From a bacterium (GTDB lineage Bacteria > Fidelibacterota > Marinisomatia > Marinisomatales > UBA1611): DNA of 48,383 nt. The notes under the pieces are model-generated. The model did not search any database. It was not told the DNA's origin and worked only from the letters and a program-made list of their open reading frames with translations. The stretch covers positions 1 through 48,383 of the forward strand of contig JABGWJ010000098.1 of assembly GCA_018645565.1 (NCBI GenBank), given 5' to 3'. The translations under genes and the position numbers were made by a program. Shown piece by piece: positions 5,755 through 44,600 of the stretch (the stretch's first letter is position 1; each line of letters starts with the position of its first letter).

Positions 5755-5763
5755 ATTTAAAAG

Positions 5764-5837
5764 TGGGCGATGACGGATTCGAACCGCCGGCCTCTACGAT
5801 GTCAACGTAGCGCTCTAACCAACTGAGCTAATCGCCC
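5764..5837 (-). tRNA. tRNA-Val, anticodon GAC; no encoded CCA
   Basis: The minus strand reads GGGCGAT TA GCTC AGTTGGTT AGAGC G CTACG TTGACAT CGTAG AGGCC GGCGG TTCGAAT CCGTC ATCGCCC A. This is a full cloverleaf with a 7-bp acceptor stem, D arm, 5-bp anticodon stem and GTTCGAATC T loop. The anticodon loop is TT-GAC-AT. Confidence 0.9.
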
Positions 5838-8123: not shown

Positions 8124-8817
8124 AATAAATATTTTTATCGTCCTTACTCACAAGCAAAACGCACTCACCTTTATATGTTTTTGTTTCAAGAATTTCTAAA
8201 AGACTAGACAAGGTTCCTCTGATTATTTCCTCATAAATCTTTGTAATCTCTCTGCATATTACAGCAGGTCTATCACCAAGGATTTCAAATAGCTGCCTAA
8301 CTGTTCTTTTAAGTCTATTGCTGTTTTCATAAAAAATAATTGTCGCTTCTACATCTTTTAAATTCTCAATAATCTTTTTGCGACCTTTTTTTGGCGGCAA
8401 GAAACCTTCAAATATAAACCTGTCGGTAGGTAAGCCAGAGCTGACCAAAGACGCTAAAACAGCAGAGGCACCTGGAATAGCCTCTATTTTACTACCAATT
8501 TCAATTGCTCTTCGAACTAACTTATAAGCAGGGTCTGATATAGCTGGGGTACCTGCATCTGTGATAACCGCCACATCGTAATTATCTTTTAAAACCTCCT
8601 CTATTTTCAATAATCGCTGGAATTTATTGTGTTCGTAATAACTTATCATTTTCGTTTTTATATTGTATCTAGATAAAAGGATTTTTGACCTTCTGGTGTC
8701 TTCAGCAGCTATTAAATTAACTCCTTTCAGTATATCAACAGCCCTGAACGTAATGTCTTCAAGATTTCCTATTGGAGTAGATACCAGGTACAAAGTACCA
8801 ATATTGCTTTTAATCAA
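8116..8817 (-). CDS. rsmI: 16S rRNA (cytidine1402-2'-O)-methyltransferase
   Basis: 233 aa. GTLYLVSTPIGNLEDITFRAVDILKGVNLIAAEDTR is the hallmark RsmI/tetrapyrrole-methylase-fold N-terminus. Confidence 0.9.
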   Translation of the reverse strand: MIKSNIGTLYLVSTPIGNLEDITFRAVDILKGVNLIAAEDTRRSKILLSRYNIKTKMISYYEHNKFQRLLKIEEVLKDNYDVAVITDAGTPAISDPAYKLVRRAIEIGSKIEAIPGASAVLASLVSSGLPTDRFIFEGFLPPKKGRKKIIENLKDVEATIIFYENSNRLKRTVRQLFEILGDRPAVICREITKIYEEIIRGTLSSLLEILETKTYKGECVLLVSKDDKNIYFD

Positions 8818-10165
8818 TTTTTAATTTGTTTAAACATTTTTTTATCGCATCCATGCCAATATTTATATCATCTTTAGTAATATTTAAATGAGGTCTAAAA
8901 CGTATTGATTTTTGCCCCGACCCAAGAACAATAACTTTGTTTTCCATTAACATAGATGCTAGAGCATCTCGATGGTTTGAGTCCGGGAGGTCAAAAGCGC
9001 AAAATAAACCCTTGCCCCTAGCATTGGACACTAAGTCCGAATAATCTGTTTGAATATTTTTCAATTGATCTAAAAGATAATTACCATTTTGTTTAGCATT
9101 ATTCACAAGGTTCTCCTGCTCCATAATTTCTAAATATATTGTAAACCTAACCATATCAACTAAATTCCCTCCCCAAGTGGAATTAATACGACTAGACTCT
9201 TGAAACACATTGTTTTCAACCTCGTTCAATCTATTCCCAGCAAATATACCACAGCACTGGGTTTTTTTGCCAAAGCTTATAATATCTGGTTCCATTGGCA
9301 TACACCTGGTTTTAGAACCACAATCACAACTTACTTTGCATAAGTGTTGGTGGGCCCACATCTCTCCAGTAATTCCAGCACCGGTTTGGACCTCATCAAA
9401 AATCAATAGCATATCATTTTCTAAGCATAACTGCTTTAATTCTATCAAAAATTCAGGCCTAAAATGATTATCACCACCTTCGCCCTGAATAGGCTCGATA
9501 ATGATGCAAGCTATATCATGGGGATTTTTTAAAATAGCATCTTTAATTTGATTTAAAGATATAGTTTCTCTCGCAATTACATCAGCTATATTTTCATCGT
9601 TTAGAGGAAAATTGATATTAGGCGTTGATACACGAGGCCAATTAAATTTTGGAAAATACATTACTTTTCTCGGATCTGGAGAGTCTGTTAAAGACATTGT
9701 ATAGCCAGAGCGACCATGAAAACACTTCTCGAAATGCAGTACCTGAGAACCAATTTCACCATGACCTTTTTCTATATTCTTTCTCACTTTCCAATCAAAC
9801 GCAGCTTTTAATGCGTTTTCTACTGCTAATGCGCCACCTGAGACATAAAAAGAATGCGGCAGATAATCAGGTTGCGCTATTCTACCCATAGTACCTACGA
9901 ATTCCGCCATCGCAATAGAATATATGTCCGAATTAGTAGGTTTATTTATCGCACTTGCAAGAAGCCTATTTTTATTGTCCAAAACATAAGGATGATTATA
10001 ACCGACAGATAATGATGCAAACATAGAAAAAAGATCTAAGTATTCATCACCGTTGGTACCATCAACTAGCCAGCTACCATGGCTTTTTTCTAAATCAATA
10101 ACTGGAGACATTCCATCAGCCAGCATATGATTACCTATTACTTTATGAACATCAGAATATTTCAT
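8810..10165 (-). CDS. lat: L-lysine 6-(epsilon)-aminotransferase, class III PLP enzyme
   Basis: 451 aa. The N-terminus HMLADGMSPVIDLEKSHGSWLVDGTNGDEYLDLFSMFASLSVGYNHP and the PLP-lysine motif SFGKKTQCCG match the LAT family as I remember it (Mycobacterium, Streptomyces, Flavobacterium). An ALDH7-type gene lies 1 nt upstream. Confidence 0.8.
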   Translation of the reverse strand: MKYSDVHKVIGNHMLADGMSPVIDLEKSHGSWLVDGTNGDEYLDLFSMFASLSVGYNHPYVLDNKNRLLASAINKPTNSDIYSIAMAEFVGTMGRIAQPDYLPHSFYVSGGALAVENALKAAFDWKVRKNIEKGHGEIGSQVLHFEKCFHGRSGYTMSLTDSPDPRKVMYFPKFNWPRVSTPNINFPLNDENIADVIARETISLNQIKDAILKNPHDIACIIIEPIQGEGGDNHFRPEFLIELKQLCLENDMLLIFDEVQTGAGITGEMWAHQHLCKVSCDCGSKTRCMPMEPDIISFGKKTQCCGIFAGNRLNEVENNVFQESSRINSTWGGNLVDMVRFTIYLEIMEQENLVNNAKQNGNYLLDQLKNIQTDYSDLVSNARGKGLFCAFDLPDSNHRDALASMLMENKVIVLGSGQKSIRFRPHLNITKDDINIGMDAIKKCLNKLKID

Positions 10166-10166
10166 A

Positions 10167-11693
10167 TTAATCTCCTAAATTAAACTCAATACCTTGAGCA
10201 AGAGGTAGATCAGAACCCCAATTAATTGTATTTGTTTGTCGTCGCATATACTGCTTCCAAGAATCAGAACCAGATTCACGACCACCACCAGTTTCCTTTT
10301 CGCCTCCAAAAGCGCCACCAATCTCAGCACCGGAAGTACCAATATTTATATTTGCGATACCACAATCACTACCTATGGCAGATAGAAAGGTTTCTGCGTT
10401 TTTAATGTTTAATGTGAACATTGAAGAAGATAATCCTTGAGGCACGTCATTATGCATTCTTATCGCATCCTCTAAGCCATCATATTTCATAATATAAAGG
10501 ATTGGAGTAAAAGTTTCTTTTTGAACAATACTCCATTCATTCTTCGCTTCAATAATTGTGGGCTCAACAAATGAACCGCTTTCTGAAAACCGATTCCCTC
10601 CACATAATACTTTTCCTCCATTTGCCACTGCTTTTTCAATAGCTGTAAAATGATCTGAAACGGCTTTTTCATTTACTACTGGTCCCATTAGAGTATCTTT
10701 ATTTAAAGGATCTCCAATTTTTACCTGTTTATACGCAGACACGACTTTATCAATAAGGTCATCATAAATATTTTCATGGACTATTATCCTCCGTGTACTC
10801 GTGCACCTTTGACCTGCTGTACCAACAGCGCCAAACACGATTGCAGGTACAACCATGCTCATATCAGCTGAATCATCAACAATAATACAATTATTGCCTC
10901 CCAATTCGAGTATTGTCTTTCCGAATCTAGATGAGACTACTTCGCCCACATGTTTTCCTACCTTTGTTGATCCTGTAAAAGAAACTAAAGGAACCGATTT
11001 ATTATTTATAAGATTTTCGCCAACCGTAGAACCATTTCCAATTACCAGACTGAATATATCAGGAACATCATTAACTTTTAAAACTTCATTGCAAATATTT
11101 TGGACCGCAATTGCACAAAGAGGAGTTTCCTCGGACGGCTTCCAAATTGTTGTGTTTCCACAAATAGCGGATAAGAAAGCATTCCAACTCCAAACCGCTA
11201 CTGGAAAGTTAAACGCACTAATAACACCCACCGGCCCAATTGGGTGCCATTGCTCATACATTCTATGTTGTGGCCTTTCTGAATGCATTGTCTTACCATA
11301 GAGCATTCTTGATTGCCCTACGGCAAAGTCTGCAATATCTATCATTTCTTGAACTTCACCATCGCCCTCTTGCTTTATCTTACCCATTTCAAGTGAAACA
11401 AGACTGCCTAACGGATCTTTATAATCTCTTAAAGCTCCAGCCATCTCCCTAACAAGCTGACCGCGAAGTGGCGCAGGAACTTTTCGCCATTCTTTGTAAG
11501 CATCCGTAGATTTTTTTATAATTGTATTACAATCATCTATAGTTGATTCATAAACAGAAGCTATAATTTCCCCAGTAGATGGATTTATTGAAGATATCTT
11601 TTTTGAACTGCTACTTTTTATCCATCCATCAGGACCAGAACAGGCTCCATAATTATCTTCTTTTATACTAAGTTTTTCTAATATTGTATTCAT
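10167..11693 (-). CDS. ALDH7-type aldehyde dehydrogenase (alpha-aminoadipic semialdehyde / piperideine-6-carboxylate dehydrogenase)
   Basis: 508 aa. N-terminus [17 protein letters not shown]...[12 protein letters not shown] resembles antiquitin/ALDH7. It has the ALDH catalytic motifs ELGGNN and [12 protein letters not shown]. It is paired with lat, the known two-step route from lysine to 2-aminoadipate. Confidence 0.8.
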
Positions 11694-11708: not shown

Positions 11709-13040
11709 TTATAGTGATGCTACTACATCTTTTACTGCGTTTGAGAGCAATTCTATTTGTTCCCTCTCTATTGTTAATGCAGGAGCTAACCTCACAGTAG
11801 TTCTGTGCGTTTCTTTAGCGTAAACACCCCGGTCCATTAATCCGACAGAAACTTTGTGGCCATCTAAACTTTTCTCATCAAACATTTCGAAGGCTGTTAG
11901 TAGACCTTTACCTCTAACCTCTTTTATCTTGTCAGGATAGTGGCTCTGGATATCTCTAAGATTATTCATGAGTTGTGCACCTCTGACTTCTGCTTTTTCA
12001 GCTAAATTAGCATCAACCATGACTTTAATAGCATACGTACCAACAACAGAAGCGAGTGGATATCCACCAAATGTTGAGCCTTCAGAACCTGGCGTCAACA
12101 AGCCAAGCACGTCATCTCTTCCAGCCACAAAAGAGACAGGAAGAATTCCTCCGCCTGCAGCTTTACCGCAGCCCATTATATCTGGAACTACTCCAAATAA
12201 TTGGTGCGCGAAATTTCTACCAGTTCTACCAAAACCAGTTTGAACTTCATCCATCGATAATAAAACATTATGCTTTTTACATAATTCAGAAACTTTAATA
12301 AAATAATCATCATCAGGCACAATTACGCCGGCTTCACCTTGTATAGGTTCGACCATATATGCGGCAATGTACTCGCCTTTTTTTTCAAAGAGTCGTTGCA
12401 ATGCACCAACGTCATTATACGGTACTAATTCTATACCGGGAACAAATGGGCCAAAGTTTTCTTTTGAATCAGGATCATCTGAAAATGAAACAGCCGCTAG
12501 AGATCTACCATGAAAATTTCCAGTAGCGCCAACAACAATCGCTTCATTTGCTGGAATACCTTTTACTTCATAACCCCATCTTCTACAAATTTTGAATGAA
12601 AGCTCCCAAGATTCTACTCCGGCAACTTTTGGAATAACTCTATCCATACCGGTAATCGCAGTTGCAGAAAGTAAAAATGCACTCATATATTTATGTCTAA
12701 TTGACCTTGGAACAGTAGGAAGCTTTTCCTCTTCTAAGTGTTTTATTACTGCTTTCACAATTGTCTGGTTTAACTGGCCTTGATTTACCGCAGAATAACA
12801 ACATAGACCATCAAGTATCTCTTCTTCTATATATTTGGTAATATCATCGGGATGTGGCTTTCTAGCGATTAAAGTAGAAGAATCTTTTACTTTAGAGATT
12901 ACAACATTTTCTAAAGGAGAATAATTCTGTCCACCTTTTTCTTTTTCAATTTTTTCATGCTCATGTGGCGTTAAGTCACCGATCTTAATTCCATCGACAC
13001 TTAAGTCGTCGCCATAGCCATCTATTAATACCTCTGCCAT
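11709..13040 (-). CDS. Ornithine-aminotransferase-like class III PLP aminotransferase (divergent)
   Basis: 443 aa. OAT-like blocks are YSAVNQG, GNFHGRSLAAVSFSDDPDSKENFGPFVPG..VPYND, DEVQTGFGRTG, and GKAAGGG (PLP Lys). The protein has an N-terminal extension of about 35-40 aa and altered conserved motifs (see findings). Confidence 0.7.
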   Translation of the reverse strand: MAEVLIDGYGDDLSVDGIKIGDLTPHEHEKIEKEKGGQNYSPLENVVISKVKDSSTLIARKPHPDDITKYIEEEILDGLCCYSAVNQGQLNQTIVKAVIKHLEEEKLPTVPRSIRHKYMSAFLLSATAITGMDRVIPKVAGVESWELSFKICRRWGYEVKGIPANEAIVVGATGNFHGRSLAAVSFSDDPDSKENFGPFVPGIELVPYNDVGALQRLFEKKGEYIAAYMVEPIQGEAGVIVPDDDYFIKVSELCKKHNVLLSMDEVQTGFGRTGRNFAHQLFGVVPDIMGCGKAAGGGILPVSFVAGRDDVLGLLTPGSEGSTFGGYPLASVVGTYAIKVMVDANLAEKAEVRGAQLMNNLRDIQSHYPDKIKEVRGKGLLTAFEMFDEKSLDGHKVSVGLMDRGVYAKETHRTTVRLAPALTIEREQIELLSNAVKDVVASL

Positions 13041-13088: not shown

Positions 13089-13958
13089 TTATTCCTCTTC
13101 GGTCGAACTACCAAGATTATCGATAGGCGCTATAACACCGCGATCCTCTTCTTTGTAAGCCGCATAACCAAGAGCGCCAACGATAATGAATAAAACCCAA
13201 AATGTAGCATAATTATATTCACTACCAGAGTATTTTATGAGATCAGTAAACCTACCAATAAGTAATGAAATACGGCCCATAACGGCAAAACCAAACGAGG
13301 CACCAAAACTTATCATTAAGAAATAAATACCTATTTTTGAAGCTTTTCCAAGAAGACCCTTGTGTTCTTTTGAAAAATAAAAATATAGAAGTCCACATAT
13401 CGTACCAACGAAAATAATTATATTATTAAAAATTGAGGGAGATGAAAGACTAAAGACGGGCAAACTAAAATCTAGAAGATTAACAGCCGTACCTTTAATT
13501 TGACCAAGAACATTTGAATTCAGATAACCATACGCTTTCAGCCCCGCAGCCATTCCAACAACGTATGCGATTCCCCAGCGAGCCATCCAACTAAAACGAG
13601 GAATAAGACTAAGTAGCATCATCACACCTAATGCCAAGGGTATTAAATAAGTTAAATGTTGATCATGCCCTTTATCAATACCGCCTTCTGGAAAAATTGA
13701 ACTAGAGAAAAAGCTAAGTACATTATAGATAGTATACGTAATTGTATCGGGGTCATAATGCTTTGCAGGAAAAAGACGACCAAAAAGGTTTGGTTGAAGT
13801 TGAGTCCAAAATCCTAGAGATAAAAGATATCCAGCGGAAACCCCAACAAAAAGATGTTCAGCTGCCTTATAGAATGGGTTATCTTTATAAAGGTAAGAAA
13901 AGATACCAATCGTTAAAAACGCGGCAACCCAAGCACCTAATATAGTTGAAAATTCCAT
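13089..13958 (-). CDS. Polytopic membrane protein, about 8 predicted TM helices, function unknown (operon gene 7)
   Basis: 289 aa. It has repeated 18-22-aa hydrophobic stretches (ILGAWVAAFLTIGIFSYL, LFVGVSAGYLLSLGFW, LTYLIPLALGVMMLLSLI, IGIYFLMISFGASFGFAVMG, FWVLFIIVGALGYAAY). A 9-nt gap separates it from the upstream gene. Confidence 0.7.
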   Translation of the reverse strand: MEFSTILGAWVAAFLTIGIFSYLYKDNPFYKAAEHLFVGVSAGYLLSLGFWTQLQPNLFGRLFPAKHYDPDTITYTIYNVLSFFSSSIFPEGGIDKGHDQHLTYLIPLALGVMMLLSLIPRFSWMARWGIAYVVGMAAGLKAYGYLNSNVLGQIKGTAVNLLDFSLPVFSLSSPSIFNNIIIFVGTICGLLYFYFSKEHKGLLGKASKIGIYFLMISFGASFGFAVMGRISLLIGRFTDLIKYSGSEYNYATFWVLFIIVGALGYAAYKEEDRGVIAPIDNLGSSTEEE

Positions 13959-13967
13959 TTTTATTCC

Positions 13968-14822
13968 TTAATACTTTCTTGATCTTTTTCGTTCAATAAA
14001 AAAAGAAATATTACCAAGAACAATAAATAGCACAATTACTAAGTGAGCTACTGACTGCGCATCCATCCCGCTTGTGGCTGAACCTTTTTGATTTATTAAC
14101 GACTCATATTCAGCGGCACCAGGCATACCAGCGAGGACACCAACCATTTGCCCTGATTGAACATAAGGCATAACCTCATTTACCTGAATAGATGTTACTC
14201 CTGAACTCATAGGTACCCCAGTAGGGTCTGCGGCATACTGTACCCATTCTATTGTGCCTGGATACCCAGCGGAAGCACTAAACAAAAAGTCGAAATCTTT
14301 AAAATTAGTTATGCCATCCATCATGGGAATATCGTCGACCTTTGTTTGCTTTGCATCAACAGAAAATAGTTTTCGAATATTACTAACAATACCTTTAACC
14401 ACCGCCTCGCCACCAGGTCTGTAACCAAGTAAAACATAATCCTCACCATATGTCTTGTTAAACTCGCCTTCTGCGACCTGTTTCAAAGCATCCTGAGCCA
14501 TAAACTGCCCATCAGGCCATAGGCAAGTGACATAAACCTTTTGATCATTTCTGAATAAATGCCTCATGATGCTAATAGTCATAGGATGGTTTTCAGGCTT
14601 TGTGCTGGGACTATATTCAATAGAGAGCAAGACATTTGACCCTTTAGGAAGAGCCTCTATAGCATCATAGACACTTTTTGAAGTATCGGTTGCTCGAATT
14701 GGAAGCCCAATTGGCACAAGCAGAGGAATAATTACAACAACAGCAATAACAATAAATATCCACCTTCTATCGACGCTGCCTATTTTTAAAAAAATATTTT
14801 CTATTTTATCCAATTTACTCAC
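13968..14822 (-). CDS. Bitopic membrane protein (N-terminal TM, ~215-aa soluble domain, C-terminal TM), function unknown (operon gene 6)
   Basis: 284 aa. TM segments are WIFIVIAVVVIIPLLVPIGL and VAHLVIVLFIVLGNISFFI, and the tail is basic (ERKRSRKY). It overlaps the upstream gene by 8 nt. Confidence 0.7.
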   Translation of the reverse strand: MSKLDKIENIFLKIGSVDRRWIFIVIAVVVIIPLLVPIGLPIRATDTSKSVYDAIEALPKGSNVLLSIEYSPSTKPENHPMTISIMRHLFRNDQKVYVTCLWPDGQFMAQDALKQVAEGEFNKTYGEDYVLLGYRPGGEAVVKGIVSNIRKLFSVDAKQTKVDDIPMMDGITNFKDFDFLFSASAGYPGTIEWVQYAADPTGVPMSSGVTSIQVNEVMPYVQSGQMVGVLAGMPGAAEYESLINQKGSATSGMDAQSVAHLVIVLFIVLGNISFFIERKRSRKY

Positions 14823-15639
14823 CTATGTAAGATCTTTCTATTCCTAGGATATAGCGAATTGAGGTCGCAAAAATACCCAAACCAATTCCGATCATTATCG
14901 CACGAGCACCAGCAACATTAGGATAAAAATAAATCCATTCTTGTATTGACGGAAGATAGAATATACCCGGTTGATCTATTGGCCAGCCTGTTATAACACC
15001 TCCTATGGTAACAAGTGAAATACCTACAGCAACAAAAACAAAAGTGATCTTCATGTCCTGTTTCAAACTATTCACATAGATACCAAGACAAAGAATAATC
15101 AGATACATAATAAACCAGGAAGATATGATACCTCCGATAGGAACTCTACCAACCATAATAATAATACCAGAGACTAGAAGCAGAGTCGCTTCAAAATTTC
15201 TTATTCTAAAAGCACGATAAGAGGCTGAAGCAACAAAAAATGCCAATAAAGAAAACATTGTTGCTGACATTGGAGAAAAAACATAATCAAACATCCATTT
15301 AAAAAGAGTTCCGTCTGAGGTGACATGAGCGCCCCATTGAGCAACAGAGTCATCTACTCCTTTTACAAAAAATCCTGCAATAATTGCAAAAATAAAACCA
15401 AAAACAGCAATGATACTGTACTGCCAACCAGGCTTCTGATACAAAACCTTCTGTAATTGTAATTTAATTAAATTTAAAGCTCCAAGTATGATAGCAAAGC
15501 TAGCTAAAACATCAAACCACTGTGTTGCATCATCGCCAACAAATTCTTTGACATTTGGCTGATCTATAAACCAACCAAAAAGGGTAATTGAACCGATGAG
15601 CGTTACGATAAATATCGGTATCTGTCTTTTCCAAAACAT
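14815..15639 (-). CDS. Polytopic membrane protein, about 8 predicted TM helices, function unknown (operon gene 5)
   Basis: 274 aa. Hydrophobic stretches include IPIFIVTLIGSITLFGWF, YSIIAVFGFIFAIIAGFF, MFSLLAFFVASASY, GGIISSWFIMYLIILCLGIYV and AIMIGIGLGIFATSI. Confidence 0.7.
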   Translation of the reverse strand: MFWKRQIPIFIVTLIGSITLFGWFIDQPNVKEFVGDDATQWFDVLASFAIILGALNLIKLQLQKVLYQKPGWQYSIIAVFGFIFAIIAGFFVKGVDDSVAQWGAHVTSDGTLFKWMFDYVFSPMSATMFSLLAFFVASASYRAFRIRNFEATLLLVSGIIIMVGRVPIGGIISSWFIMYLIILCLGIYVNSLKQDMKITFVFVAVGISLVTIGGVITGWPIDQPGIFYLPSIQEWIYFYPNVAGARAIMIGIGLGIFATSIRYILGIERSYIGE

Positions 15640-15645
15640 AATCGA

Positions 15646-16509
15646 CTACCTTATTGTTAAATACTTTATAATATTAAAACCAATTCCAGTTGATTCATAA
15701 ACCGTCATTATAATAGCTGAAATAACAATAACAGATATAACAACTAGCTTAATCATATCTTGACCCTTAACACCGCCGATAAGCTCAGGTTTTTGGCTTA
15801 AATATGCACTGGCCGCAAAAAATTCTTCACCTATAAGAGTATAATCACAAGCAGTTACAAAAAAAGGTATTTGTGCCTGCGAAGCAGTACCTGCTATTTG
15901 AATAGCACCAATAGAATTTCCAGTTTCAGCTAGAATGAGAGACTCAGCATAAAACTTACCCATATACATACAAGCTGCAGGCTTTTCGCGAAGCATAATG
16001 CCATTAACACCAGCGGCGTAAGCAAATTGATCATCTGTCAAGTAGTGAACCATGTCTTCATTAAACATATCCGGCCTACCCTCAACCATGTAAGCTTCTC
16101 TGCAAGACTCTCTAGCGGCCTTCATCACGATAGATCTAGAAACGGGAACATTAAGACTAGTTTCATATCGAGCCGTCATCTTTGCAACATGACCTAGAAC
16201 AACAACCCCGGCGACTGTCTCGACTTGATCCATATCTTGAATTCCGGGAACGTAAAGAATCGGCCTACCCATTTCAGTAGAACGACCTACGGCTTCTTCA
16301 ACAGCTTTTAGAGCTGGAATTGGTCTTAGATAAAATTCCTCTCCTCGTTCAGCAGCTCTAATATAATATAACAGAGTGGCACTAAGAGTGACGATGGAGA
16401 AAAGCATTATGAACCTTTCCGTAACAAAATAAGGATGACCTAATAGCCAGTACACAAGAAAAACAACTGTAATCGAAGCGATTACAAACCAAAAATTTCT
16501 ATCCTTCAA
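15646..16509 (-). CDS. Membrane protein (two N-terminal TM, ~195-aa soluble domain, C-terminal TM), function unknown (operon gene 4)
   Basis: 287 aa. TM segments are FWFVIASITVVFLVYWLLG, FIMLFSIVTLSATLLYYI and MIKLVVISVIVISAIIMTVY. It overlaps the upstream gene by 4 nt. Confidence 0.7.
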   Translation of the reverse strand: MKDRNFWFVIASITVVFLVYWLLGHPYFVTERFIMLFSIVTLSATLLYYIRAAERGEEFYLRPIPALKAVEEAVGRSTEMGRPILYVPGIQDMDQVETVAGVVVLGHVAKMTARYETSLNVPVSRSIVMKAARESCREAYMVEGRPDMFNEDMVHYLTDDQFAYAAGVNGIMLREKPAACMYMGKFYAESLILAETGNSIGAIQIAGTASQAQIPFFVTACDYTLIGEEFFAASAYLSQKPELIGGVKGQDMIKLVVISVIVISAIIMTVYESTGIGFNIIKYLTIR

Positions 16510-16829
16510 ATATTATCCCTAATTGCATCTTTTGAATCTAACATCTCAAGACGTTCAATTTCATCTAATAAAATTGATAGCGAATCTTTTTTATTTAACA
16601 ACTCCGCAGCTCTGTAATACCCGTCTGCCTGCACAAAACCATTAATTATTGGACCCATAAAAACCATTAAATGACTTCCAAGGGAAGACAGCGGCCGTAC
16701 CATTTCTAGAAAAAATATTGATGGCGTAACGAACCCCGAACTATGAACTTTTTTAGCTAATCTGTGAATAAAATCAATATCTTGCTGGGAAATTTTACCA
16801 TCAACAATCTCTTTATTTAAAGACGTCAA
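16506..16829 (-). CDS. Small 107-aa protein of unknown function (operon gene 3), TTG start
   Basis: The frame opens 1 nt after the stop of the upstream gene. The start codon is the reverse complement of CAA at 16827-16829, that is TTG. It has a hydrophobic core segment (VTPSIFFLEMVRPLSSLGSHLMVFMGPIINGF). I recognise no motif. Confidence 0.55.
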   Translation of the reverse strand: MTSLNKEIVDGKISQQDIDFIHRLAKKVHSSGFVTPSIFFLEMVRPLSSLGSHLMVFMGPIINGFVQADGYYRAAELLNKKDSLSILLDEIERLEMLDSKDAIRDNI

Positions 16830-16830
16830 A

Positions 16831-17958
16831 CTAATCAGTCTCTACAACTTCTAAATTAGAACGTGGAATTTCTATCAACTCACCATCTATATCAATAATA
16901 GCAACTCGAACCATTGTTTCAGACTCCATTTTCCTCAATTCAGATGGAAGCTCTTTCACAGAGCCAATTTTACCAAAATTTGGAGAGCGGATAACTCTAA
17001 CTAAGCTACCTTCTGTCATACCAGACATTTTTTTAGAATTCTCATCACTATCTTTTTGGCTACTTGCATCGGAAGGGATAATTATCTCGGGCCTTATTAC
17101 GCCAGCGCGTATCTGAGTAGCACCATTAATTGAGGCTAATCGACCACTATTCTCTCTCAATAAATCAAATGTTTGCTGTCCCATCTGGATTTTACCATAA
17201 CCTTCTGTAACTATTAGTGAGGTAATTAATTCCTCAGAGCCAGTTATTGCCACACCAAGCGTGTATCCTAAAATTTCTTCTAAGTCATAGTAATTAAACC
17301 CACCAACAACAACACCAGCAACTTTGCATTCTAAAGCTTTTTTATACGCTTCTAAACTAATAAAACTTCCACCTACTATTATCAAACCCTCATGTTCAGG
17401 CTTTATCATATCAACACTAATTTCAGAAGTTCTATTTTCTGAAAGCATCTTGATTTCACCCCGGCTTTCGCCTCCTATACCAAAGATGCCTTGAACAAAA
17501 GAACCATAGCTTTTTATAACCACACCTTCTTCAGTTATTACTTCATCAACAACACCTCGTATGTAAGCATCAACTTCTACAGGTATCGGAGCTTCTCTAA
17601 TCACAACTTGCCCTGTAATATTGGAAACTGACTCAATGGTACCATCAACGGGGCTATTTACACTCGATTTAAAATATCCGAAAATGCCATTCGTTTGTGC
17701 AATCAAATCATTTTTACTTACTTTAGAGCCTTCTTTTGCAATCATAACAGTTTCAACATCTGAGGCATCAACATTCAACTGATTAGCAATATTAACCATT
17801 TGCACATTACCTGGTAAATCTGTTTTCGCAATAGTATCTCCAGGCGCTACGGTATCTCCAACGGATGTATCAACAGACCCTTTCAAAGGAAGCCTACGCT
17901 CTTTTAAAATTTTAGTATTCTTTAATACCTTTAATCCTGGTGTATACGAATGAGCCAT
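16831..17958 (-). CDS. Soluble 375-aa protein with two barrel-sandwich-hybrid (lipoyl/biotinyl-like) hairpins and a C-terminal SH3/KOW-like segment (operon gene 2)
   Basis: Two hairpin signatures are visible: GSVDTSVGDTVAPGDTIAKTD and SKVSKNDLIAQTN...VNSPVDGTIESVSNITGQVVI. The overall layout is reminiscent of the NqrA/RnfC N-terminal domains. There is no biotinylation (AMKM) or lipoylation motif, and only one Cys. Confidence 0.55.
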   Translation of the reverse strand: MAHSYTPGLKVLKNTKILKERRLPLKGSVDTSVGDTVAPGDTIAKTDLPGNVQMVNIANQLNVDASDVETVMIAKEGSKVSKNDLIAQTNGIFGYFKSSVNSPVDGTIESVSNITGQVVIREAPIPVEVDAYIRGVVDEVITEEGVVIKSYGSFVQGIFGIGGESRGEIKMLSENRTSEISVDMIKPEHEGLIIVGGSFISLEAYKKALECKVAGVVVGGFNYYDLEEILGYTLGVAITGSEELITSLIVTEGYGKIQMGQQTFDLLRENSGRLASINGATQIRAGVIRPEIIIPSDASSQKDSDENSKKMSGMTEGSLVRVIRSPNFGKIGSVKELPSELRKMESETMVRVAIIDIDGELIEIPRSNLEVVETD

Positions 17959-17959
17959 A

Positions 17960-19777
17960 TTATTTGCCTAATTCAGGATATTCATCTACAGCATCAGACC
18001 ACTTTTTAAGATCTGCAATACGCTTTGAGGAAGATTGATCTATTTGCAATGGCCTACCTCGACCATCAATTATAATACCAACTTGTCCGCCATATATATC
18101 AGTATTTATTTGCTCTCCAAATCCAGCACCTACGTTAACACTTTTACCTGGAGTTAGAGTAGCCTTGACTTTTTCGTATCCTACTTTAATTCTTATTAAA
18201 TCGCCGAAGCCAATATCAATGTTTTTCTTATCGCCATTTTTAAATTCTAAATTCACGTTAAGAATTTTTTCACTATTATTTAGTTTACCAACTGGTGCGA
18301 TACAAGTACCAAGGCGAATCAAACAGTCTTTTTCAAAAACCTCAAGCGCAGCCACCCTAGCCTGTTCAGCGATTTTTTTATTTTCAATATTTGCCATTAC
18401 ACCTAGTTGAGGCATCATAAAAATTGAATCTACAGCTAAAGAAGTGACTCCTTCAGGCAAAAAACTATCAATTAACATTTTTGCTGATTGTTCTCTCCTT
18501 GGTGCATGAGATAAGACACCACCAGAGCCAACGATGAGATCTAGCTCCATCATGTCTACAAGAGATTCACCAGAATCTGATTGTTCAAAAGCATCTGAAA
18601 TAGTTCTTTCTTTTTGGACACCTTTGAGATTTACCGCAAAAGCTTTATGCTGTATAAACGATAATCTTAGGGCTTCTCTGGCTATTGCTTGCTCAATTAC
18701 AAGCTCTTCCAAACTCTGTGGAACTGTTGTCGGGCGAATCATTTTATTACCGATTCTATTTGTTAATTCTTTTTCATCTATATCAAAAGGCACCCAACGA
18801 AGAACATTAGGTAAAGAGGCCTCCGCAAGTACGTTACAAATCGAGTAACTCATGCCAAGGTTTGCGCTAACAGTTCTATTAAACTGACTCTGAAAAACAG
18901 AAAAGATATCGGTAGTCGCACCTCCAATATCAACACCAACAACAGAAATATTTTCTTTATTTGCAACCATTTCAATTAGTGCGCCCACGGCACCAGGAGT
19001 CGGCATAATCGGAGCATCTGTCCAACTCATCAATTTTTTGTAGCCTGGAGCTTGTTGCATTACATGCTCCATAAACAAATCATGTATTTTATCTCTGGAT
19101 GGTTTGAGGTTTTCTTGTTCTAAAACAGGTCTAATATTTTCTGTAACATCAAGATCTGTAAGTTTACCGAGTGTCTTTTGTATGTCAGAAGTTGCTTTTT
19201 TATTTCCAGCGTAAATAACTGGTAGCTTGTAATTTTGACCTAATCTTGGTTGCGGATTCGCAGCAGCTAATATTTCAGCAAGTTCAACCACGTGCTTTGT
19301 TGTACCTCCATCAATACCACCAGAAAGTAAAATCATATCTGGTCTTAATTGTCGTATTCTAGTAATCTTTTCATGCGGTTTTCTGCCATCATTGGCTGCA
19401 AGTACATCCATAACGATAGAACCAGCGCCAAGGGCCGCGCGCTCAGCGCTTTCTCCCGTCATCGATTTGACAACACCTGCTACCATCATTTGAAGTCCTC
19501 CACCAGCAGAACTAGTCGATATATATATATCTACGCCATCATCTTTTTTCTGAGGCGTAATAATATTTTCACCATCAAGTATTTTTCGACCAGAGAGCTC
19601 TTCAATTTCCATTGTAGCATTTAAAACGCCTCGAGTTACATCTTCAAAAGGAGCTTCAACAGTTGTAGGTGCCTCACCTCTAAAGGTTAAGCGATATTCA
19701 CCATCAACAAATTCAATTAAAATTGCTTTTGTCGTAGTACTACCGCAATCAGTAGCCAGTATAGAACGAAGTTTCAA
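17960..19777 (-). CDS. GlmL/MutL-family ASKHA-fold ATPase, long form of 605 aa (operon gene 1)
   Basis: The N-terminus ILATDCGSTTTKAILI is the GlmL (glutamate mutase L, Pfam MutL) phosphate-1 signature. A second nucleotide-binding lobe reads VGVDIGGATTDIFSV. Other motifs are LLSGGIDGGTTKHV and LIVGSGGVLSHAP. The C-terminal ~110 aa ends in GGQVGIIIDGRGRPL. Confidence 0.75.
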   Translation of the reverse strand: MKLRSILATDCGSTTTKAILIEFVDGEYRLTFRGEAPTTVEAPFEDVTRGVLNATMEIEELSGRKILDGENIITPQKKDDGVDIYISTSSAGGGLQMMVAGVVKSMTGESAERAALGAGSIVMDVLAANDGRKPHEKITRIRQLRPDMILLSGGIDGGTTKHVVELAEILAAANPQPRLGQNYKLPVIYAGNKKATSDIQKTLGKLTDLDVTENIRPVLEQENLKPSRDKIHDLFMEHVMQQAPGYKKLMSWTDAPIMPTPGAVGALIEMVANKENISVVGVDIGGATTDIFSVFQSQFNRTVSANLGMSYSICNVLAEASLPNVLRWVPFDIDEKELTNRIGNKMIRPTTVPQSLEELVIEQAIAREALRLSFIQHKAFAVNLKGVQKERTISDAFEQSDSGESLVDMMELDLIVGSGGVLSHAPRREQSAKMLIDSFLPEGVTSLAVDSIFMMPQLGVMANIENKKIAEQARVAALEVFEKDCLIRLGTCIAPVGKLNNSEKILNVNLEFKNGDKKNIDIGFGDLIRIKVGYEKVKATLTPGKSVNVGAGFGEQINTDIYGGQVGIIIDGRGRPLQIDQSSSKRIADLKKWSDAVDEYPELGK

Positions 19778-19812: not shown

Positions 19813-20631
19813 TTATTGATTAAAAACCAAGAGGTAAATATAAATCAAAGGCGATGAAAAAAGTAAGGAATCAAAGCGGTCCAATATTCCTCCATGCCCT
19901 CTTAAGATATCTCCAGAATCTTTGACTCCAACATCGCGCTTAAGAAGCGACTCTCCAAAATCTCCAAGCTGGCCAAAAACACCAGAAATAAAACCAAATA
20001 CAATACAATCAATTAAAGAGTATGTAGGTCCTAAAAAATCAAGCTTATATGCAATGAAAAACGTTAATATAGAAAAAATAAAACCAGAAATCGACCCTAC
20101 CCAACTTTTTTTAGGACTTATTTTGGGAAGAATTTTTTTCTCACCAAATTTTGTTCCAAAAAAGAAAGCGGCTGTATCACATAGCCAGACAGACAAAAAC
20201 AATAAAAGCGTAACATTGGAATCAAAAATATGATCTAATTGCCTTAAGTGGATCAGTGTTCCAAGCAAGGTTGGAACAAAAATGATACCCAAAACGGTAT
20301 TTGCAATATTTTGCAAAGGCTCCTTTTTATTATTTATTATTTCAATGATAAAAAGACTAATTACAGTCATGCAAGCTAGACCGAGCACTGTAATTTGATG
20401 ATGAGCATAAACGCCAGAGTAAGCTAGTCCAATAAAAACAGTTATAATAAATCCAAATATACGATTTGGATAACTACCTTTTATTTCACACATTTTGAAA
20501 AACTCATCAAGACCTAGCAACATAATCAACGTAGTAACAATGGCAAAAATTGGGTTCCCAACATAAAAACAACCTATACCTAAGGGGACCCCCAGGATTA
20601 AAATCAGCTTTCTACCTTTAAGTTCTTTCAT
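19813..20631 (-). CDS. cdsA: Phosphatidate cytidylyltransferase (CDP-diglyceride synthase)
   Basis: 272 aa and polytopic. It carries the CdsA signature SPKKSWVGSISG...GDFGESLLKRDVGVKDSGDILRGHGGILDRFDS. Confidence 0.9.
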   Translation of the reverse strand: MKELKGRKLILILGVPLGIGCFYVGNPIFAIVTTLIMLLGLDEFFKMCEIKGSYPNRIFGFIITVFIGLAYSGVYAHHQITVLGLACMTVISLFIIEIINNKKEPLQNIANTVLGIIFVPTLLGTLIHLRQLDHIFDSNVTLLLFLSVWLCDTAAFFFGTKFGEKKILPKISPKKSWVGSISGFIFSILTFFIAYKLDFLGPTYSLIDCIVFGFISGVFGQLGDFGESLLKRDVGVKDSGDILRGHGGILDRFDSLLFSSPLIYIYLLVFNQ

Positions 20632-20662
20632 ATCCTAATTTACTATAATCATTAGATTAAAA

Positions 20663-21550
20663 TTAGATTATAAGTTCTACGCCTCCTTTGATTAAAGTTA
20701 CAGATACAGGCGACGTCCCAATAATCTCCCCGTCAATATTTAATTTTCCTTTATCATCTGGATCAATAGAAAACGATTTACATTGAACATATTCACATGC
20801 ATCATGATCTACATGCGAGCCATCAAATAATTTGGGAAATACTGAAAATAAAGTGAGGCTAGATGCTTTTTTAACAATGATTAAATCTATTAAACCATCA
20901 TCAATTATTGCATTAGGCGCCATTTTCATATCTTTGCCAACATATTTAGTATTACAAGCAATAATAAAAGCGAAATCACCTTCCCTTTCAACTCCATCAA
21001 TAGTTATTTTTGCAATTCTACGCTTATTTTTAATAATTTCAAAAAATGAAGCAATATTATAACGCTGACCACCGAACATACGTAGTTTTTCGGCAAACAC
21101 AGAAATGTCAGTTGCCATTCCCCAGCCAATGAGGTTAAGTGAAAAGAAATCTTTTTGACCACAGCTTGCTTTCATGACGTCAATTTTTCTAGAACTATTC
21201 TCTGCTATTATTTTTACAGCAGACTCTTGTTTAGTAGCTCCAACAGTCTTCATAAAAGAATTACCCGTACCATTTGGTATTACTGATATAGGAATTCTAT
21301 CATCTGCTGATTTTGATAACATCCCATTCAAAACCTCAAACAATGTACCGTCTCCCCCCACAGCACAAACAGAATCAAAAGTAGTTAAATTTTCATTTTT
21401 TACTATATCTTCGGCATGACCATTATACTCAGTTTTTATTAAAGTACTTTTTAAGCTGTATTTCTTAAAATACATATTAACTGAGTTTATAGCGTTATTA
21501 AAATTAATAGTTCCGCTTTTAGGATTAGCAATTAAAAGGATCTTTGTCAT
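20663..21550 (-). CDS. Diacylglycerol-kinase-family lipid kinase (YegS/BmrU-like)
   Basis: Motifs are ILLIANPKSG and AVGGDGTLFEVLNGM. I place the start at the ATG at 21548-21550 (MTKILLIANPKSG), which forms an ATGA overlap with the rlpA stop. The track start at 21592 would run 45 nt back into rlpA. Confidence 0.8.
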   Translation of the reverse strand: MTKILLIANPKSGTINFNNAINSVNMYFKKYSLKSTLIKTEYNGHAEDIVKNENLTTFDSVCAVGGDGTLFEVLNGMLSKSADDRIPISVIPNGTGNSFMKTVGATKQESAVKIIAENSSRKIDVMKASCGQKDFFSLNLIGWGMATDISVFAEKLRMFGGQRYNIASFFEIIKNKRRIAKITIDGVEREGDFAFIIACNTKYVGKDMKMAPNAIIDDGLIDLIIVKKASSLTLFSVFPKLFDGSHVDHDACEYVQCKSFSIDPDDKGKLNIDGEIIGTSPVSVTLIKGGVELII

Positions 21551-22071
21551 TTTGGGCGATCCCTGTGATGCATATAAACACCGTCGCCCCATTCAATAAC
21601 ATCAATTTGTACTTTTGTTTTTCCTTGCTTAATAAAATCTAATTTTTTAGCAGCGCCGTAAGAACAGTCTAGCATTCTTCCTTGAATGTAGGGGCCTCTA
21701 TCATTAATTCTTAAAATTAAAGATTTACCATTTGCCAAATTGGTGACCCTTGCAACAGTATTTAAGGGGATTGTCTTATGAGCAGCAGTTAAGCCGTACA
21801 TATCATAAATCTCCCCATTTGCAGTAAGCTTTCCATGAAAATCCTCTGCGTAAAATGAACTGATACCGACCATCTTTTTTTTATGTTTGACATTAGTATT
21901 TACTGTTTTGGGATCAATAAAAATTGCCTTGCTTTTAGAGATGTTTTTTTTGATTGGTGTCCGATATTTTTTTTTAACCTTAGAAGTCGCCGTTCTTCCA
22001 TATCTTGGTGCGCTTGAGCAGGCAGCGAAGACTAAAAAAACCAGAACATAAATGATTTTTCTATGAATCAT
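21547..22071 (-). CDS. rlpA: Septal ring lytic transglycosylase RlpA-family protein (DPBB domain), lipoprotein
   Basis: 174 aa with a lipobox-like VFAACSS. DPBB core: GISSFYAEDFHGKLTANGEIYDMYGLTAAHKTIPLNTVARVTNLANGKSLILRINDRGPY. Confidence 0.85.
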   Translation of the reverse strand: MIHRKIIYVLVFLVFAACSSAPRYGRTATSKVKKKYRTPIKKNISKSKAIFIDPKTVNTNVKHKKKMVGISSFYAEDFHGKLTANGEIYDMYGLTAAHKTIPLNTVARVTNLANGKSLILRINDRGPYIQGRMLDCSYGAAKKLDFIKQGKTKVQIDVIEWGDGVYMHHRDRPK

Positions 22072-41618: not shown

Positions 41619-44600
41619 TTATTTCAGAAGTACCATTTTTTTCATTTGATGATACGTACCAGCACGGATAGTATAAATGTACATTCCTGCACCAACAGGT
41701 AATCCCTTATCATTCGTTGCATTCCATACGGTTGTATGGTATCCAGCTGAGATATTACCCTGGATTAATGTTCTTACTTTCCTTCCCATCATATCATATA
41801 TGCTAATTGTCACCATCGACTGCTCAGGGATTGCATAGCGTATCTGTGTGCTAGGGTTAAATGGATTTGGATAATTCTGTTCCAATGCAAACACGGTAGG
41901 TAAAGTCACTTGTTCAGATGATGAGAGAACTGCTGCCGCAATATCGGAAGCATCGCTCTCATTACCAGCACTATCTACCGCAGTGATCCAGTATTCATAT
42001 GAACCTTGAGTACCTTCTTGGTCAACATAAAAAGAGTCTGTTGTGGTAAAAACCATCGCAAGATCAGCACTGTTAAGATCGTTTTTGTAAATATTATGAT
42101 AACTAAAATCCTCATCTACCTGCGTGTTCCATTGTAAAATAACGCTAGAACCGCTCTCAAGCGCAGTTAATCCTTGAGGTACTGTTGGGTGTAGATTGTC
42201 AACAGAAAAGCCTGTTACAGGTTCAGAAACATGGTATAGTACTACATCTTCAGTATGAGCTGTTACTCTAAACGTACTATGATGAACGCCATGAGTAGTA
42301 GAGTCTCCAAGTGTTGGAACGACAAGACTGTACTCATCCTCCGTACCAATCCAAGGTATTGTCGCAATAAAATCCCAGAGATCTGATGTATCAGCTTGGA
42401 ACTCTACTGGAGAATGGTACCAAGAAAAACCACCTCCGCTATTATTACCAAAGTAGCTTGTAAAAGTAACATCATAGTATTCATCATTATCTATGAGATA
42501 AAGAGAAAATACCGGATTACCGGCAAGTTGCTGGACTAGTGTTTGATTTACATTATATCCCGATTGCAATATCGCAGCATTTAATGACGTATATGCTAGA
42601 TCTGAATGGCTTTCATCTAAAGTAGCGCCCCATCTCCAACTTGTTCCAGATGGTCCATTAGGATCGTAACTATCTTGCGAGAAAATATTAAAGATGCCCT
42701 GATTACTCGCTCTAGTTAGCCAGACCGTTTCTGAAATACGGTCTTGATTTTGTTCTAAAGTCCAGTCTGCATTATTCTCTTTGGTAAAATATACAATGTC
42801 TGGTTCTGGATTTACTTTTCTCCATGCAGAAAACTGGGTAAATAGTAATGATGGATCTAACTGACCAGGCTTCCATACGATTTGCATCTGCTTACCCTGG
42901 TCATTTGCTACGTCTCTTAAACTTAATATCTCCGGACGGTGGTCTGCGATATAAACTGTAAACTGCTCACTTACAACATACTCACTATCCGAGACACTCA
43001 AGGTAAATACATACTCCCCATCTTGCTCTGGCTGACCTACGATCTTAGATCCATCTAATGATATCCACGAAGGTGCTCCTTCTAGAGTGAAAAAGATATC
43101 AGAGTCTATATCATCTGCATAGAGCCAGTGCTCTAGTCCTGAAGTAATATCACCCATAGCATGAAAATGGTTCATCGTAAAAAATGGTGGGTCGTTCACA
43201 GGAACAACCTCTACAGTAAACTCCTTTGCATCCGATGCTCTGCTCATATTATCATTAGCAACAACAACGATCTCTACTGTTCCATTCCAATCAGCATCTG
43301 GATTGATATAAAGAAGCGTATCTTCTACAAAAGCAGATACTCTGTCCTGGGAGCTATATGCATAGACACTTAGCTCAGCATTATCGATGTCATTAGCAAA
43401 TATGGAAAGAACCAGTGTTGAGTCTTCATGCATCGATGTATCTGCAAAAGCAGATAACACAGGAGCATCATTCATCGGCTCCACAAAAAGATGTATCATG
43501 GCAGTGTCCGATCGAAAATCAGCTACGCCATCAGTGGTACCATTATCTGTTACTGAAAACAGAAAACTATCTGCACCAAAGAAGTTTGCATCAGGAGTGT
43601 ATGTAAACTCTCCGGAGGTATCAATCACGCTTAGAGTTCCCTTCAAAGTACTTAAAGTAATGCTATAGGTTAAGTCTTGTATCTCTTGTTGTATTGTGAA
43701 ATAATCCCCATCATTAGCTTGCAGCTCGCCATGAAGAGTATCATCTTCCGCTAACATAAAATGATCACTCATTGCCATCGGTTTATCGTTGACCTCAGTT
43801 ACTTCTATGGTAACCATAGCGGGTTCACTGTAAGCTTCACCATCATAGGCGACATACTTAAACGAGTCTAAACCAAAAAAATTATTGAAAGGAGTATATA
43901 CAAATCCCGTATCTAGTGAGATATTTATATTACCATGTTTAGATGAGTCAATGATTTCATATACTAGAAAATCATTATCAGTATCTTCACTACTAAATGG
44001 GAAATCAAATGTATTGTCTTCAAAAATTGTTAAATACTGATCACTTGCAGTAGGTGCCGTATTACAAAGATAAGACCAATTGTTAGGGGCCCAAGCATCG
44101 TTGCTCTGAAATGAAGCATGAATTAAACATTTATTGGTATCTGAAAGTCCACTAGCAGAATAAAACATTTCTACCATAGTCGTGACATTAGAAACATCCC
44201 ATGCTGAAATATCCTGGTCAAAACTAGTTGCAGACCAAAACAGATAATCCATATCCGTTACATTGGACACATCCCAGCTGGAGATATCTTGATTAAAATC
44301 AAGAGCTCTGACAAACGTCAATCCCATATCTATCACACTCGACACATCCCAGCTGGAGATATCTTGATTGAATTTTCTAGTATCTTCAAACGTCATCCGC
44401 AAGCTGGTTACACTAGAAACATCCCAGCTTGAGATATCCTGATTAAAATTCCAGCTGTCGTGAAACATACTGGTCATATTCGTTAGGCTGGACACATCCC
44501 AACCTGATATGTCTTGATTAAAATACCGACAAGTTTGAAACATTCTAGTCATATTAGTTACATTTGAAACATCCCAATTACCGATATCGTCATTGAATGT

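Follow-up and report, generated by a model that had tools for sequence, protein, structure and literature searches.

A GlmL-Type ASKHA ATPase Encoded with a DUF6754 Membrane Module: Candidate for an ATP-Powered Machine of the Bacterial Inner Membrane

Introduction

What might an ATPase of the GlmL branch be doing in the company of four membrane proteins? The question is raised by a stretch of bacterial DNA, contig JABGWJ010000098.1 (48,383 nucleotides, here called the window), in which seven open reading frames (ORFs), g1 to g7, occupy positions 13089 to 19777 of the minus strand. The first encodes an ATPase of the ASKHA (actin) fold, the next two a beta-rich soluble protein and a small protein, and the last four membrane proteins, of which g4 belongs to the Pfam family DUF6754. 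The G+C content of the window is ~35%, and its proteins have their closest named relatives in metagenome-assembled genomes (MAGs) of Candidatus Marinimicrobia/Neomarinimicrobiota.

Known ATP-driven membrane machines are built on a handful of motor folds, and we know of no description of a GlmL-branch actin-fold ATPase that is coupled to a membrane complex of its own. The lineages that carry the genes studied here (FCB, PVC, and allied phyla) include almost no genetic model organisms. The answer that we favor, although with slightly more doubt than belief, is that g1 to g7 form a single multi-subunit, ATP-powered machine of the inner membrane, composed of two modules and belonging to a class not described before.

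Results

An Invariant Membrane Module and a Separable ATPase Module

The arrangement of g1 to g7 is far beyond chance, and the same genes in the same order recur in other genomes. A first-pass annotation of this DNA had described seven tightly spaced minus-strand ORFs (-8 to +9 nucleotides, nt); all seven were found in the window, and the spacers from g1/g2 to g6/g7 measure, in order, 1, 1, -4, 6, -8, and 9 nt. Synteny was analyzed in 83 fetched loci, with every ORF searched for similarity to the window proteins. Where enough downstream sequence was available, 83 of 84 g4 genes were followed by g5, g6, and g7 in that order, and the sole exception (L058, with g4 and no g5 to g7) is an assembly gap of N. 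The genes g4-g5-g6-g7 are an invariant membrane module. A gene for DUF6754 is present in at least 596 species genomes; the phyla and groups represented include Marinimicrobia, Fidelibacterota, Zixibacteria, WOR-3, Stahlbacteria, Eisenbacteria, Ignavibacteria, Planctomycetota, Lentisphaeria, Fermentibacteria, and Riflebacteria, to which the protein database adds Latescibacteria and Coatesbacteria.

The pair g1-g2, usually with g3, is a second and separable module. In 29 fully flanked genome loci, g1-g2-g3 stand beside g4 to g7 in 16, g3 alone does so in two, and none of the three is found nearby in the remaining 11. Approached from the other side, a profile search with g1 returned at least 515 metagenome contigs, and g4 lies within the flank of g1 in 15 of the 18 that are fully flanked. 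The two genes of the ATPase module are themselves close companions, g2 being near g1 in 46 of 47 informative loci (44 by a scripted count, and L129 and L134 by inspection). On one metagenome contig, L089, they are fused into a single ORF, which supports a physical complex between g1 and g2. Homologues of g3 adjoin g1 or g4 (40 ORFs in genome loci, and also most metagenome loci), and in L021, L028, and L029 g3 accompanies g4 to g7 where g1-g2 are absent.

The order of the modules differs among lineages. It is g1-g2-g3-g4 and onward in Marinimicrobia, g3-g1-g2-g4 and onward in Planctomycetota, and g4 to g7 followed by g3-g1-g2 in Riflebacteria, and g1-g2 are divergently placed in Zixibacteria and Ignavibacteria. 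Two or three g4 to g7 modules stand in tandem in 14 genome loci (Zixibacteria, Ignavibacteria, and unclassified MAGs); those of these loci that contain g1-g2 have one such pair only. Median identities between the tandem paralogues of a locus are 49% for g4, 42% for g5, 35% for g6, and 43% for g7, suggesting that the copies diverged anciently and that g6 is the most variable subunit. Conservation of the seven-gene block as such, on which the first-pass annotation had staked its proposal, was borne out with a small correction: the genes recur together across many phyla, but as a g4 to g7 module with a separable g1-g2(-g3) and not as a fixed block. The modular 3 + 4 architecture, the tandem copies, and the variable ectodomains (see below) are additions to that earlier picture.

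Three further features of related loci deserve mention (Table 1). One marine-sediment contig carries two tandem g1-g2 pairs, in the order g0-g1-g2-g3-g1-g2, and is the only case of a duplicated ATPase module that was seen. In 10 genome loci from several phyla, g3 is immediately preceded by the gene for a protein of ~150 amino acids (aa) that has two transmembrane (TM) segments and, at its C-terminus, a soluble domain; the window has no homologue of it. Another protein, of ~250 aa, carries a signal peptide and is anchored by a TM segment at its C-terminus. Its gene separates g1 from g2 in 14 loci of a Zixibacteria/Ignavibacteria-type clade, and it is likewise missing from the window.

The seven families showed no detectable paralogy with one another; in particular, g4 vs. 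g6 and g5 vs. g7 gave probabilities of at most 2.7% when their family profiles were compared with hhalign. A defense system was considered and rejected, since none of the seven proteins had a PADLOC match, conservation is of a housekeeping kind, and chromosomal synteny is stable.

The ATPase g1

Assignment of g1 to the MutL/GlmL-type ASKHA proteins, first made by eye, agrees with profile searches: residues 6-468 align with the whole Pfam model MutL (PF13941) at 411.8 bits (cut-off 27; E = 4.6e-123). It lies outside the characterized GlmL and Or-4 groups. The NCBIfam cut-offs were all missed, with 219.1 vs. 475 bits for GlmL (NF040745), 198.1 vs. 600 for Or-4 (NF040744), and 153.6 vs. 204.05 for the glmL_fam subfamily (TIGR01319), and an additional conserved domain of ~135 aa forms the C-terminus. 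Orthologues from different phyla share 58-83% identity. The two motifs reported at the outset, DCGSTTTKAILI and DIGGATTD, are both present, the latter as the phosphate-2 motif. Together with phosphate-1 (ATDCGSTTTK) and the adenosine motif (SGGVLSHAP), it is invariant across 37 orthologues and alignment A9, and because all three ASKHA motifs are so conserved, g1 is probably an active nucleotide hydrolase.

Hydropathy analysis gave no TM segment in g1. Searches of the PDB returned no structural relative, with nothing at E<=1 for the single sequence and a best E of 0.88 for the profile. The match to MreB-like_C stayed below threshold (E = 0.082, 13.9 vs. 27.8 bits), and the MreB, FtsA, and PilM families gave no match above threshold.

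The first-pass annotation had also pointed to the lack of a B12-binding or mutase partner and had asked whether orthologues of g1 normally adjoin B12 mutases. No B12-binding or mutase gene occurs in the window, and no mutase was found among Pfam-annotated relatives, in the flanks of isolated g1 genes (which hold amidase, CinA, YbeY, or HlyD/OEP genes), or, in related loci, among those flanking ORFs that carry an annotation. The neighbors of g1, in genome and metagenome loci, are g2, g3, and g4 to g7. Rfam and ARAGORN searches of the window found a single tRNA and no other RNA family, hence no cobalamin riboswitch. The tRNA, a tRNA-Val(GAC), is situated between thrS and a gene for an S41 protease (Table 1).

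The Soluble and Small Partners g2 and g3

An AlphaFold2 model of g2 (pLDDT 78.8) has a beta-rich N-terminal half (residues 11-171), an alpha/beta domain (~180-295), which is very conserved, and a beta-barrel (319-371). Foldseek returned domain-level matches only, to NusG/Spt5 KOW domains and to sandwich-barrel hybrid (SBHM)/biotinyl domains. In keeping with this, 20 of 27 family members matched RnfC_N (best 3e-6), 16 of 27 Biotin_lipoyl, 10 of 27 KOW, and 6 of 27 NQRA_N, while the window protein itself matched RnfC_N below threshold (17.5 vs. 25.6 bits). Near the N-terminus, a YTPGL motif is invariant. Just 33 of 42 members keep the hairpin lysine K97, which is therefore not a site for a prosthetic group, and a role of g2 as biotin or lipoyl carrier was rejected on this ground. 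The earlier description of a barrel-sandwich protein without an obligatory lysine was thus confirmed by the family matches, the Foldseek result, and the variability of K97. The protein has no TM segment and a single cysteine, and PDB searches with the sequence and the profile gave a best E of 0.26. The small protein g3 matched nothing in Pfam or NCBIfam, and its conserved hydrophobic stretch spans approximately residues 50-66.

DUF6754 and the Other Membrane Subunits

Although g4 had at first been taken for an unrecognized protein, it is catalogued in Pfam as DUF6754 (PF20539; 383.8 bits, cut-off 27, E = 4e-115, model positions 5-250 of 257); the family, which comprises 2116 clusters at 50% identity, has no assigned function. 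A hydrophobic N-terminal anchor is followed by a TM helix, a very conserved Rossmann-like domain (~55-249), and a C-terminal TM helix, and the AlphaFold2 model (pLDDT 75, pTM 0.70) likewise places TM helices on either side of a Rossmann-like alpha/beta domain. Foldseek matched this model to generic SIS/Rossmann folds (best E = 0.019, TM-score<=0.34), and PDB searches gave nothing significant with the single sequence and no profile match at E<=10. Within the domain, 40 positions are invariant in an alignment of 17 diverse sequences (A1), including GRxTEMG, ExLxxxETG, and CD...EE.

Longer homologues of g4 have a signal peptide or lipoprotein box at the start and carry, ahead of the conserved TM helix, FN3 domains or a BamB/PQQ-like beta-propeller (PQQ_2 in 18/62). 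In the family consensus, the residues that follow this helix are strongly basic. Taken with the signal peptides and lipoprotein boxes, this predicts that the variable N-terminal domain is extracytoplasmic and the DUF6754 domain cytoplasmic. The Marinimicrobia-type g4 of the window has lost its ectodomain, with only the hydrophobic anchor left.

No Pfam or NCBIfam family was found for the window proteins g5, g6, and g7, and searches with 45 diverse members of each gave no consistent Pfam family, the scattered matches being compositional. Of the ABC families, sub-threshold hits to TMD0_ABC (12/45) and ABC2_membrane_3 (1/45) occurred for g5, and none for g6 or g7. ABC_tran, FtsX, MacB_PCD, and ABC-2 membrane domains were all absent above threshold from the block, and profile searches of the PDB gave a best E of 1 for g5 and 0.28 for g6, and no match at E<=10 for g7. 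The initial view that the membrane proteins stand apart from ABC, MFS, TRAP, Rnf, Nqr, and decarboxylase subunits was accordingly upheld in Pfam, NCBIfam, PADLOC, and PDB profile searches, and no high-probability match of a membrane subunit to a characterized transporter or respiratory family was obtained.

The topology first proposed needs one amendment. The TM-soluble-TM layout of g4 and g6 and the ~8 hydrophobic segments of g5 were recovered, whereas ~8 TM segments in g7 are not firmly supported: family-mean hydropathy gave four strongly hydrophobic segments, and a single-sequence scan more. Positive-inside analysis of g6, both termini of which are basic, predicts cytoplasmic termini and a periplasmic location for its soluble domain of ~205 aa.

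Genomic Neighbors

Upstream of g1 in the window, 35 nt away, lies cdsA (CDP-diglyceride synthase), preceded by a YegS/DAGK-type lipid kinase gene. The order DAGK-cdsA-g1 was found in at least 16 Marinimicrobia-type loci and in no other phylum; it may reflect a link to phospholipids or an operon start farther upstream. Directly downstream of g7, after 48 nt with no predicted terminator, are genes for ornithine--oxo-acid transaminase (OAT), L-piperideine-6-carboxylate dehydrogenase (P6CDH), and L-lysine 6-transaminase (LAT), a catabolic set leading from lysine to 2-aminoadipate. P6CDH and/or LAT follow g7 in ~20 Marinimicrobia/Fidelibacterota-type loci, to which this linkage is confined, and close relatives have an ABC ATPase gene between g7 and the dehydrogenase gene and lack OAT. 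A lysine/ornithine catabolic operon with a GlmL-like helper was rejected as the core of the system because the catabolic neighbors occur only in Marinimicrobia-like loci.

Other lineages have other neighbors. In a clade of Zixibacteria/Ignavibacteriales MAGs, g2 is followed directly by tolQ-tolR-tolA(-like)-tolB-pal-cpoB, with g4 to g7 divergent and upstream; TolB was confirmed against the PDB (E = 2e-49). In WOR-3 and Fermentibacteria, exbB-exbD-exbD-tonB-like genes, recognized by sequence signatures and clustering only, lie ~3 kb downstream of g7. With the lysine genes set aside, the neighbors that recur have cell-envelope functions, which differ by lineage. The largest ORF of the window encodes 1545 aa (Table 1).

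Table 1. Locations of the genes and other features described in the text, given as window positions or as locus handle and position (aa, amino acids).
Feature	Location	Strand	Length	Description
g1	17960-19777	minus	605 aa	MutL/GlmL-type ASKHA ATPase (PF13941) with extra C-terminal domain; proposed motor
g2	16831-17958	minus	375 aa	Soluble partner of g1; SBHM region, alpha/beta domain and KOW/SH3-like barrel
g3	16506-16829	minus	107 aa	One conserved hydrophobic stretch; proposed membrane-associated adaptor
g4	15646-16509	minus	287 aa	DUF6754 (PF20539); TM-soluble-TM
g5	14815-15639	minus	274 aa	Polytopic, ~8 TM; family without name
g6	13968-14822	minus	284 aa	Bitopic; ~205-aa soluble domain, predicted periplasmic
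g7	13089-13958	minus	289 aa	Polytopic; family without name; last gene of membrane module
YegS/DAGK-type lipid kinase gene and cdsA	19813-21592	minus		Upstream of g1
OAT	11709-13040	minus		TIGR01885
P6CDH	10167-11693	minus		NF050084
LAT	8810-10165	minus		TIGR03251
tRNA-Val(GAC)	5763-5837	minus		Between thrS and S41 protease gene
Largest ORF of the window	41619-46256	minus	1545 aa	
g1-g2 fusion	L089:1103-4090		996 aa	Single ORF, metagenome contig
Tandem g1-g2 pairs	L161:3608-10959			Marine-sediment contig
Protein upstream of g3	e.g. L028:8716-9168		~150 aa	L021, L028, L029, L049, L051, L060, L061, L076, L077, L080
Protein between g1 and g2	e.g. L125:9749-10603, L071:4837-5652		~250 aa	Zixibacteria/Ignavibacteria-type clade
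Tol-Pal loci	e.g. L123:7953-16944			L071, L078, L113, L117, L121-L123, L125, L128; g1-gX-g2 order
exbB-exbD-exbD-tonB-like loci	e.g. L055:12285-14492			L034, L037, L039, L055, L061

Discussion

In the current study, we analyzed a group of seven genes whose products we propose to work as one machine. Its cytoplasmic module would consist of the ASKHA ATPase g1 bound to the beta-rich g2, with g3 as a membrane-proximal adaptor, and its membrane module of g4 to g7, with the polytopic g5 and g7 as the core. The Rossmann-like cytoplasmic domain of g4 would be the site at which the ATPase module docks and is coupled to the membrane, while the FN3 or beta-propeller ectodomain of g4 would face the outside in many lineages and the large domain of g6 the periplasm. 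Binding and hydrolysis of ATP by g1 would bring about a conformational change that passes through the g4 cytoplasmic domain to the TM core and on to the periplasmic side, with the result that a substrate is moved across the membrane or mechanical work is done on a component of the envelope. A single ATPase pair would serve several specialized membrane modules, whose periplasmic or surface domains would give specificity.

Several findings were counted in favor of this machine: the tight packing of the genes, the invariance of g4 to g7 and their wide distribution, the position of the ATPase module beside the membrane module, the fusion of g1 to g2, the sharing of one ATPase pair among tandem modules, the ATPase motifs, the predicted topology, and the envelope-related neighbors. 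Each of the three outcomes that the first-pass annotation had named as fatal to its proposal was looked for, and none was seen. Dependence on ATP is suggested by synteny, by the conserved ATPase motifs, and by the one natural fusion. We infer assembly of the two modules, coupling to ATP, and the direction and nature of the work. Because the recurrent neighbors are related to the envelope, the work would be done on or across it, and the cargo could be envelope-related as well, as in trafficking of lipids, lipoproteins, or surface polymers, or in uptake of macromolecules.

A number of points weigh against the proposed machine. Assembly of its two modules is argued from synteny and a single fusion, and 11 of the 29 fully flanked genome loci hold g4 to g7 but no g1, g2, or g3 within ~6-10 kb; conversely, g1 occurs by itself in a few cases (L107, L092, L120). 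We know of no ASKHA-family ATPase that energizes a transporter, and the GlmL branch is tied to reactivation of cofactors and enzymes, not to transport. The envelope-related neighbors are lineage-specific and could be incidental. Finally, g5, g7, and the g6 domain are set apart from known families at the level of sequence and profile, where a match of fold to a transporter could be missed.

The ties of the GlmL branch to reactivation give rise to an alternative that we regard as unlikely. By analogy with GlmL/MutL and with the reactivases of diol dehydratase and ethanolamine lyase, the products could form a membrane-bound enzyme complex in which the cytoplasmic domain of g4, possibly with g2, is catalytic, and g1 is a reactivase or chaperone that uses ATP to exchange a damaged cofactor or to bring the enzyme back to its starting state. 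The only named relatives of g1 are indeed mutase accessory proteins (PF13941, NF040745, NF040744), the Rossmann-like fold of the g4 domain recalls B12-binding and reactivase partner domains, many of its 40 invariant residues are Asp, Glu, or Arg, with one Cys, as might be expected of an active site, and the small alpha/beta domain of g2 is also very well kept. Nevertheless, none of the partners has a B12-binding (DxHxxG), radical-SAM, Fe-S, or flavin signature or a Pfam match that would mark such an enzyme. The window lacks a cobalamin riboswitch, mutases are absent from it and from the annotated flanks, and g1 stays below all GlmL cut-offs. Moreover, one ATPase pair for two or three diverged modules with variable secreted ectodomains fits a single enzyme and its chaperone poorly.

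The actin fold of g1 suggests another possibility, which in our judgment is quite unlikely, namely a membrane-anchored, actin-like cytoskeleton. Here g1 would polymerize, g2 and g3 would regulate it, and g4 to g7 would anchor the filaments and connect them with the FN3 or propeller domains outside the cell, with suggested roles in envelope organization, division, adhesion, or surface motility. Identities of 58-83% between phyla are typical of core cytoskeletal and division proteins, g1-g2 stand directly upstream of the Tol-Pal operon for division and envelope functions in one clade, and the ectodomains of g4 homologues resemble adhesin modules. The system also occurs in Planctomycetota, many of which lack FtsZ. 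Against this, the MutL/GlmL family has been grouped with the non-polymerizing enzymes of the superfamily (PMC5597319), and the MreB-like_C match of g1 was sub-threshold only (E = 0.082).

The last alternative, an importer of lysine, ornithine, or similar amino compounds that feeds the downstream OAT, P6CDH, and LAT, is very improbable: these genes share the strand of g7 and follow it closely with no predicted terminator, P6CDH and/or LAT recur after g7 in ~20 related loci, and operons for the fermentation of ornithine and lysine contain GlmL relatives (as the name of NF040744 indicates), but the linkage does not extend to Zixibacteria, WOR-3, Planctomycetota, Ignavibacteria, and others, close relatives carry an ABC ATPase gene after g7 and no OAT, and large FN3/propeller ectodomains and tandem modules would be unusual for an importer of small molecules.

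Regardless of which of these readings holds, the system was absent from the literature that we searched, DUF6754 included (a text search for 'GlmL' returned mostly noise from 'g/ml'), and no curated NCBIfam name or solved structure was found for it. Database entries for its proteins read 'hypothetical,' 'FN3 domain-containing,' or 'DUF6754 domain-containing.' No PDB relatives were found for g1, g2, g4, g5, g6, or g7 by sequence or profile, nor, for g2 and g4, by fold. DUF6754 and PF13941 are already catalogued, and a relation to characterized systems appears only through the fold of g1 and the domain types of g2. Because no other component shows such a relation, the architecture as a whole seems to be new and without a counterpart that we can name.

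It is conceivable, although on balance doubtful, that the machine is the first known member of a class of primary active machines of the membrane with an actin-fold (ASKHA, GlmL-branch) motor in place of an ABC, P-type, AAA+, or rotary one, in which a shared g1-g2 motor drives interchangeable four-subunit modules. If so, g6 and the FN3 or beta-propeller domains of g4 would select what is moved or remodeled in the envelope. Its abundance (at least 596 species genomes) and a conservation of g1 on a par with core cellular machinery make the system worth pursuing, as does its presence in little-studied lineages that are dominant in marine and sediment communities (Marinimicrobia, Zixibacteria, WOR-3, Planctomycetota, and Ignavibacteria). 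Solving its function would explain at least six orphan protein families in one stroke and would correct the annotation of g1 as a glutamate-mutase accessory protein, which is likely wrong. It might also uncover a new way in which diderm bacteria build their envelope, traffic lipids or lipoproteins, or take up macromolecules. The layout of one motor to several membrane modules and the natural g1-g2 fusion are experimental handles for such work.

How, then, does the system compare with those already known? With the GlmL/MutL and Or-4 proteins (PF13941; NF040745, NF040744, TIGR01319), g1 shares the alignment over the whole model and the same ASKHA motifs. It differs in scoring below all three NCBIfam cut-offs, in its extra C-terminal domain, and in its partners, which are g2, g3, and membrane proteins, with no mutase subunits in the loci examined. 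RnfC and NqrA resemble g2 in the barrel-sandwich hybrid domains with which it starts, as seen by RnfC_N and NQRA_N, and NqrA is likewise a soluble subunit encoded with membrane proteins. Unlike them, g2 lacks Fe-S, flavin, and NADH-binding domains, its remainder being the alpha/beta domain and the KOW-like barrel, and Pfam and NCBIfam searches found no homologue of RnfA/D/E/G or NqrB-F among the seven proteins. The same searches gave no match to the beta subunit (OadB/GcdB-type) of biotin-dependent Na+-pumping decarboxylases. DUF6754 itself counts g4 as a full-length member, and we found no description of the constant association of this family with three further membrane proteins and an ASKHA ATPase.

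In organization, the system also recalls ABC systems. The type VII ABC mechanotransducers MacB, FtsEX, and LolCDE also combine a cytoplasmic ATPase with membrane subunits in which TM helices enclose sizeable periplasmic domains, as predicted for g6 and the g4 ectodomain, and the envelope-related neighbor genes seen here extend the resemblance; the difference is that the present system has no ABC ATPase, FtsX, or MacB_PCD, and that the number and topology of its subunits are not the same. Energy-coupling factor (ECF) transporters and ABC systems with a shared energizing module differ from it in having the ABC fold where g1 has the actin fold, and there is no family match and no kinship of sequence or fold. 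What the system has in common with them, by analogy only, is its economy, in which one ATPase module, g1-g2, stands beside two or three diverged membrane modules.

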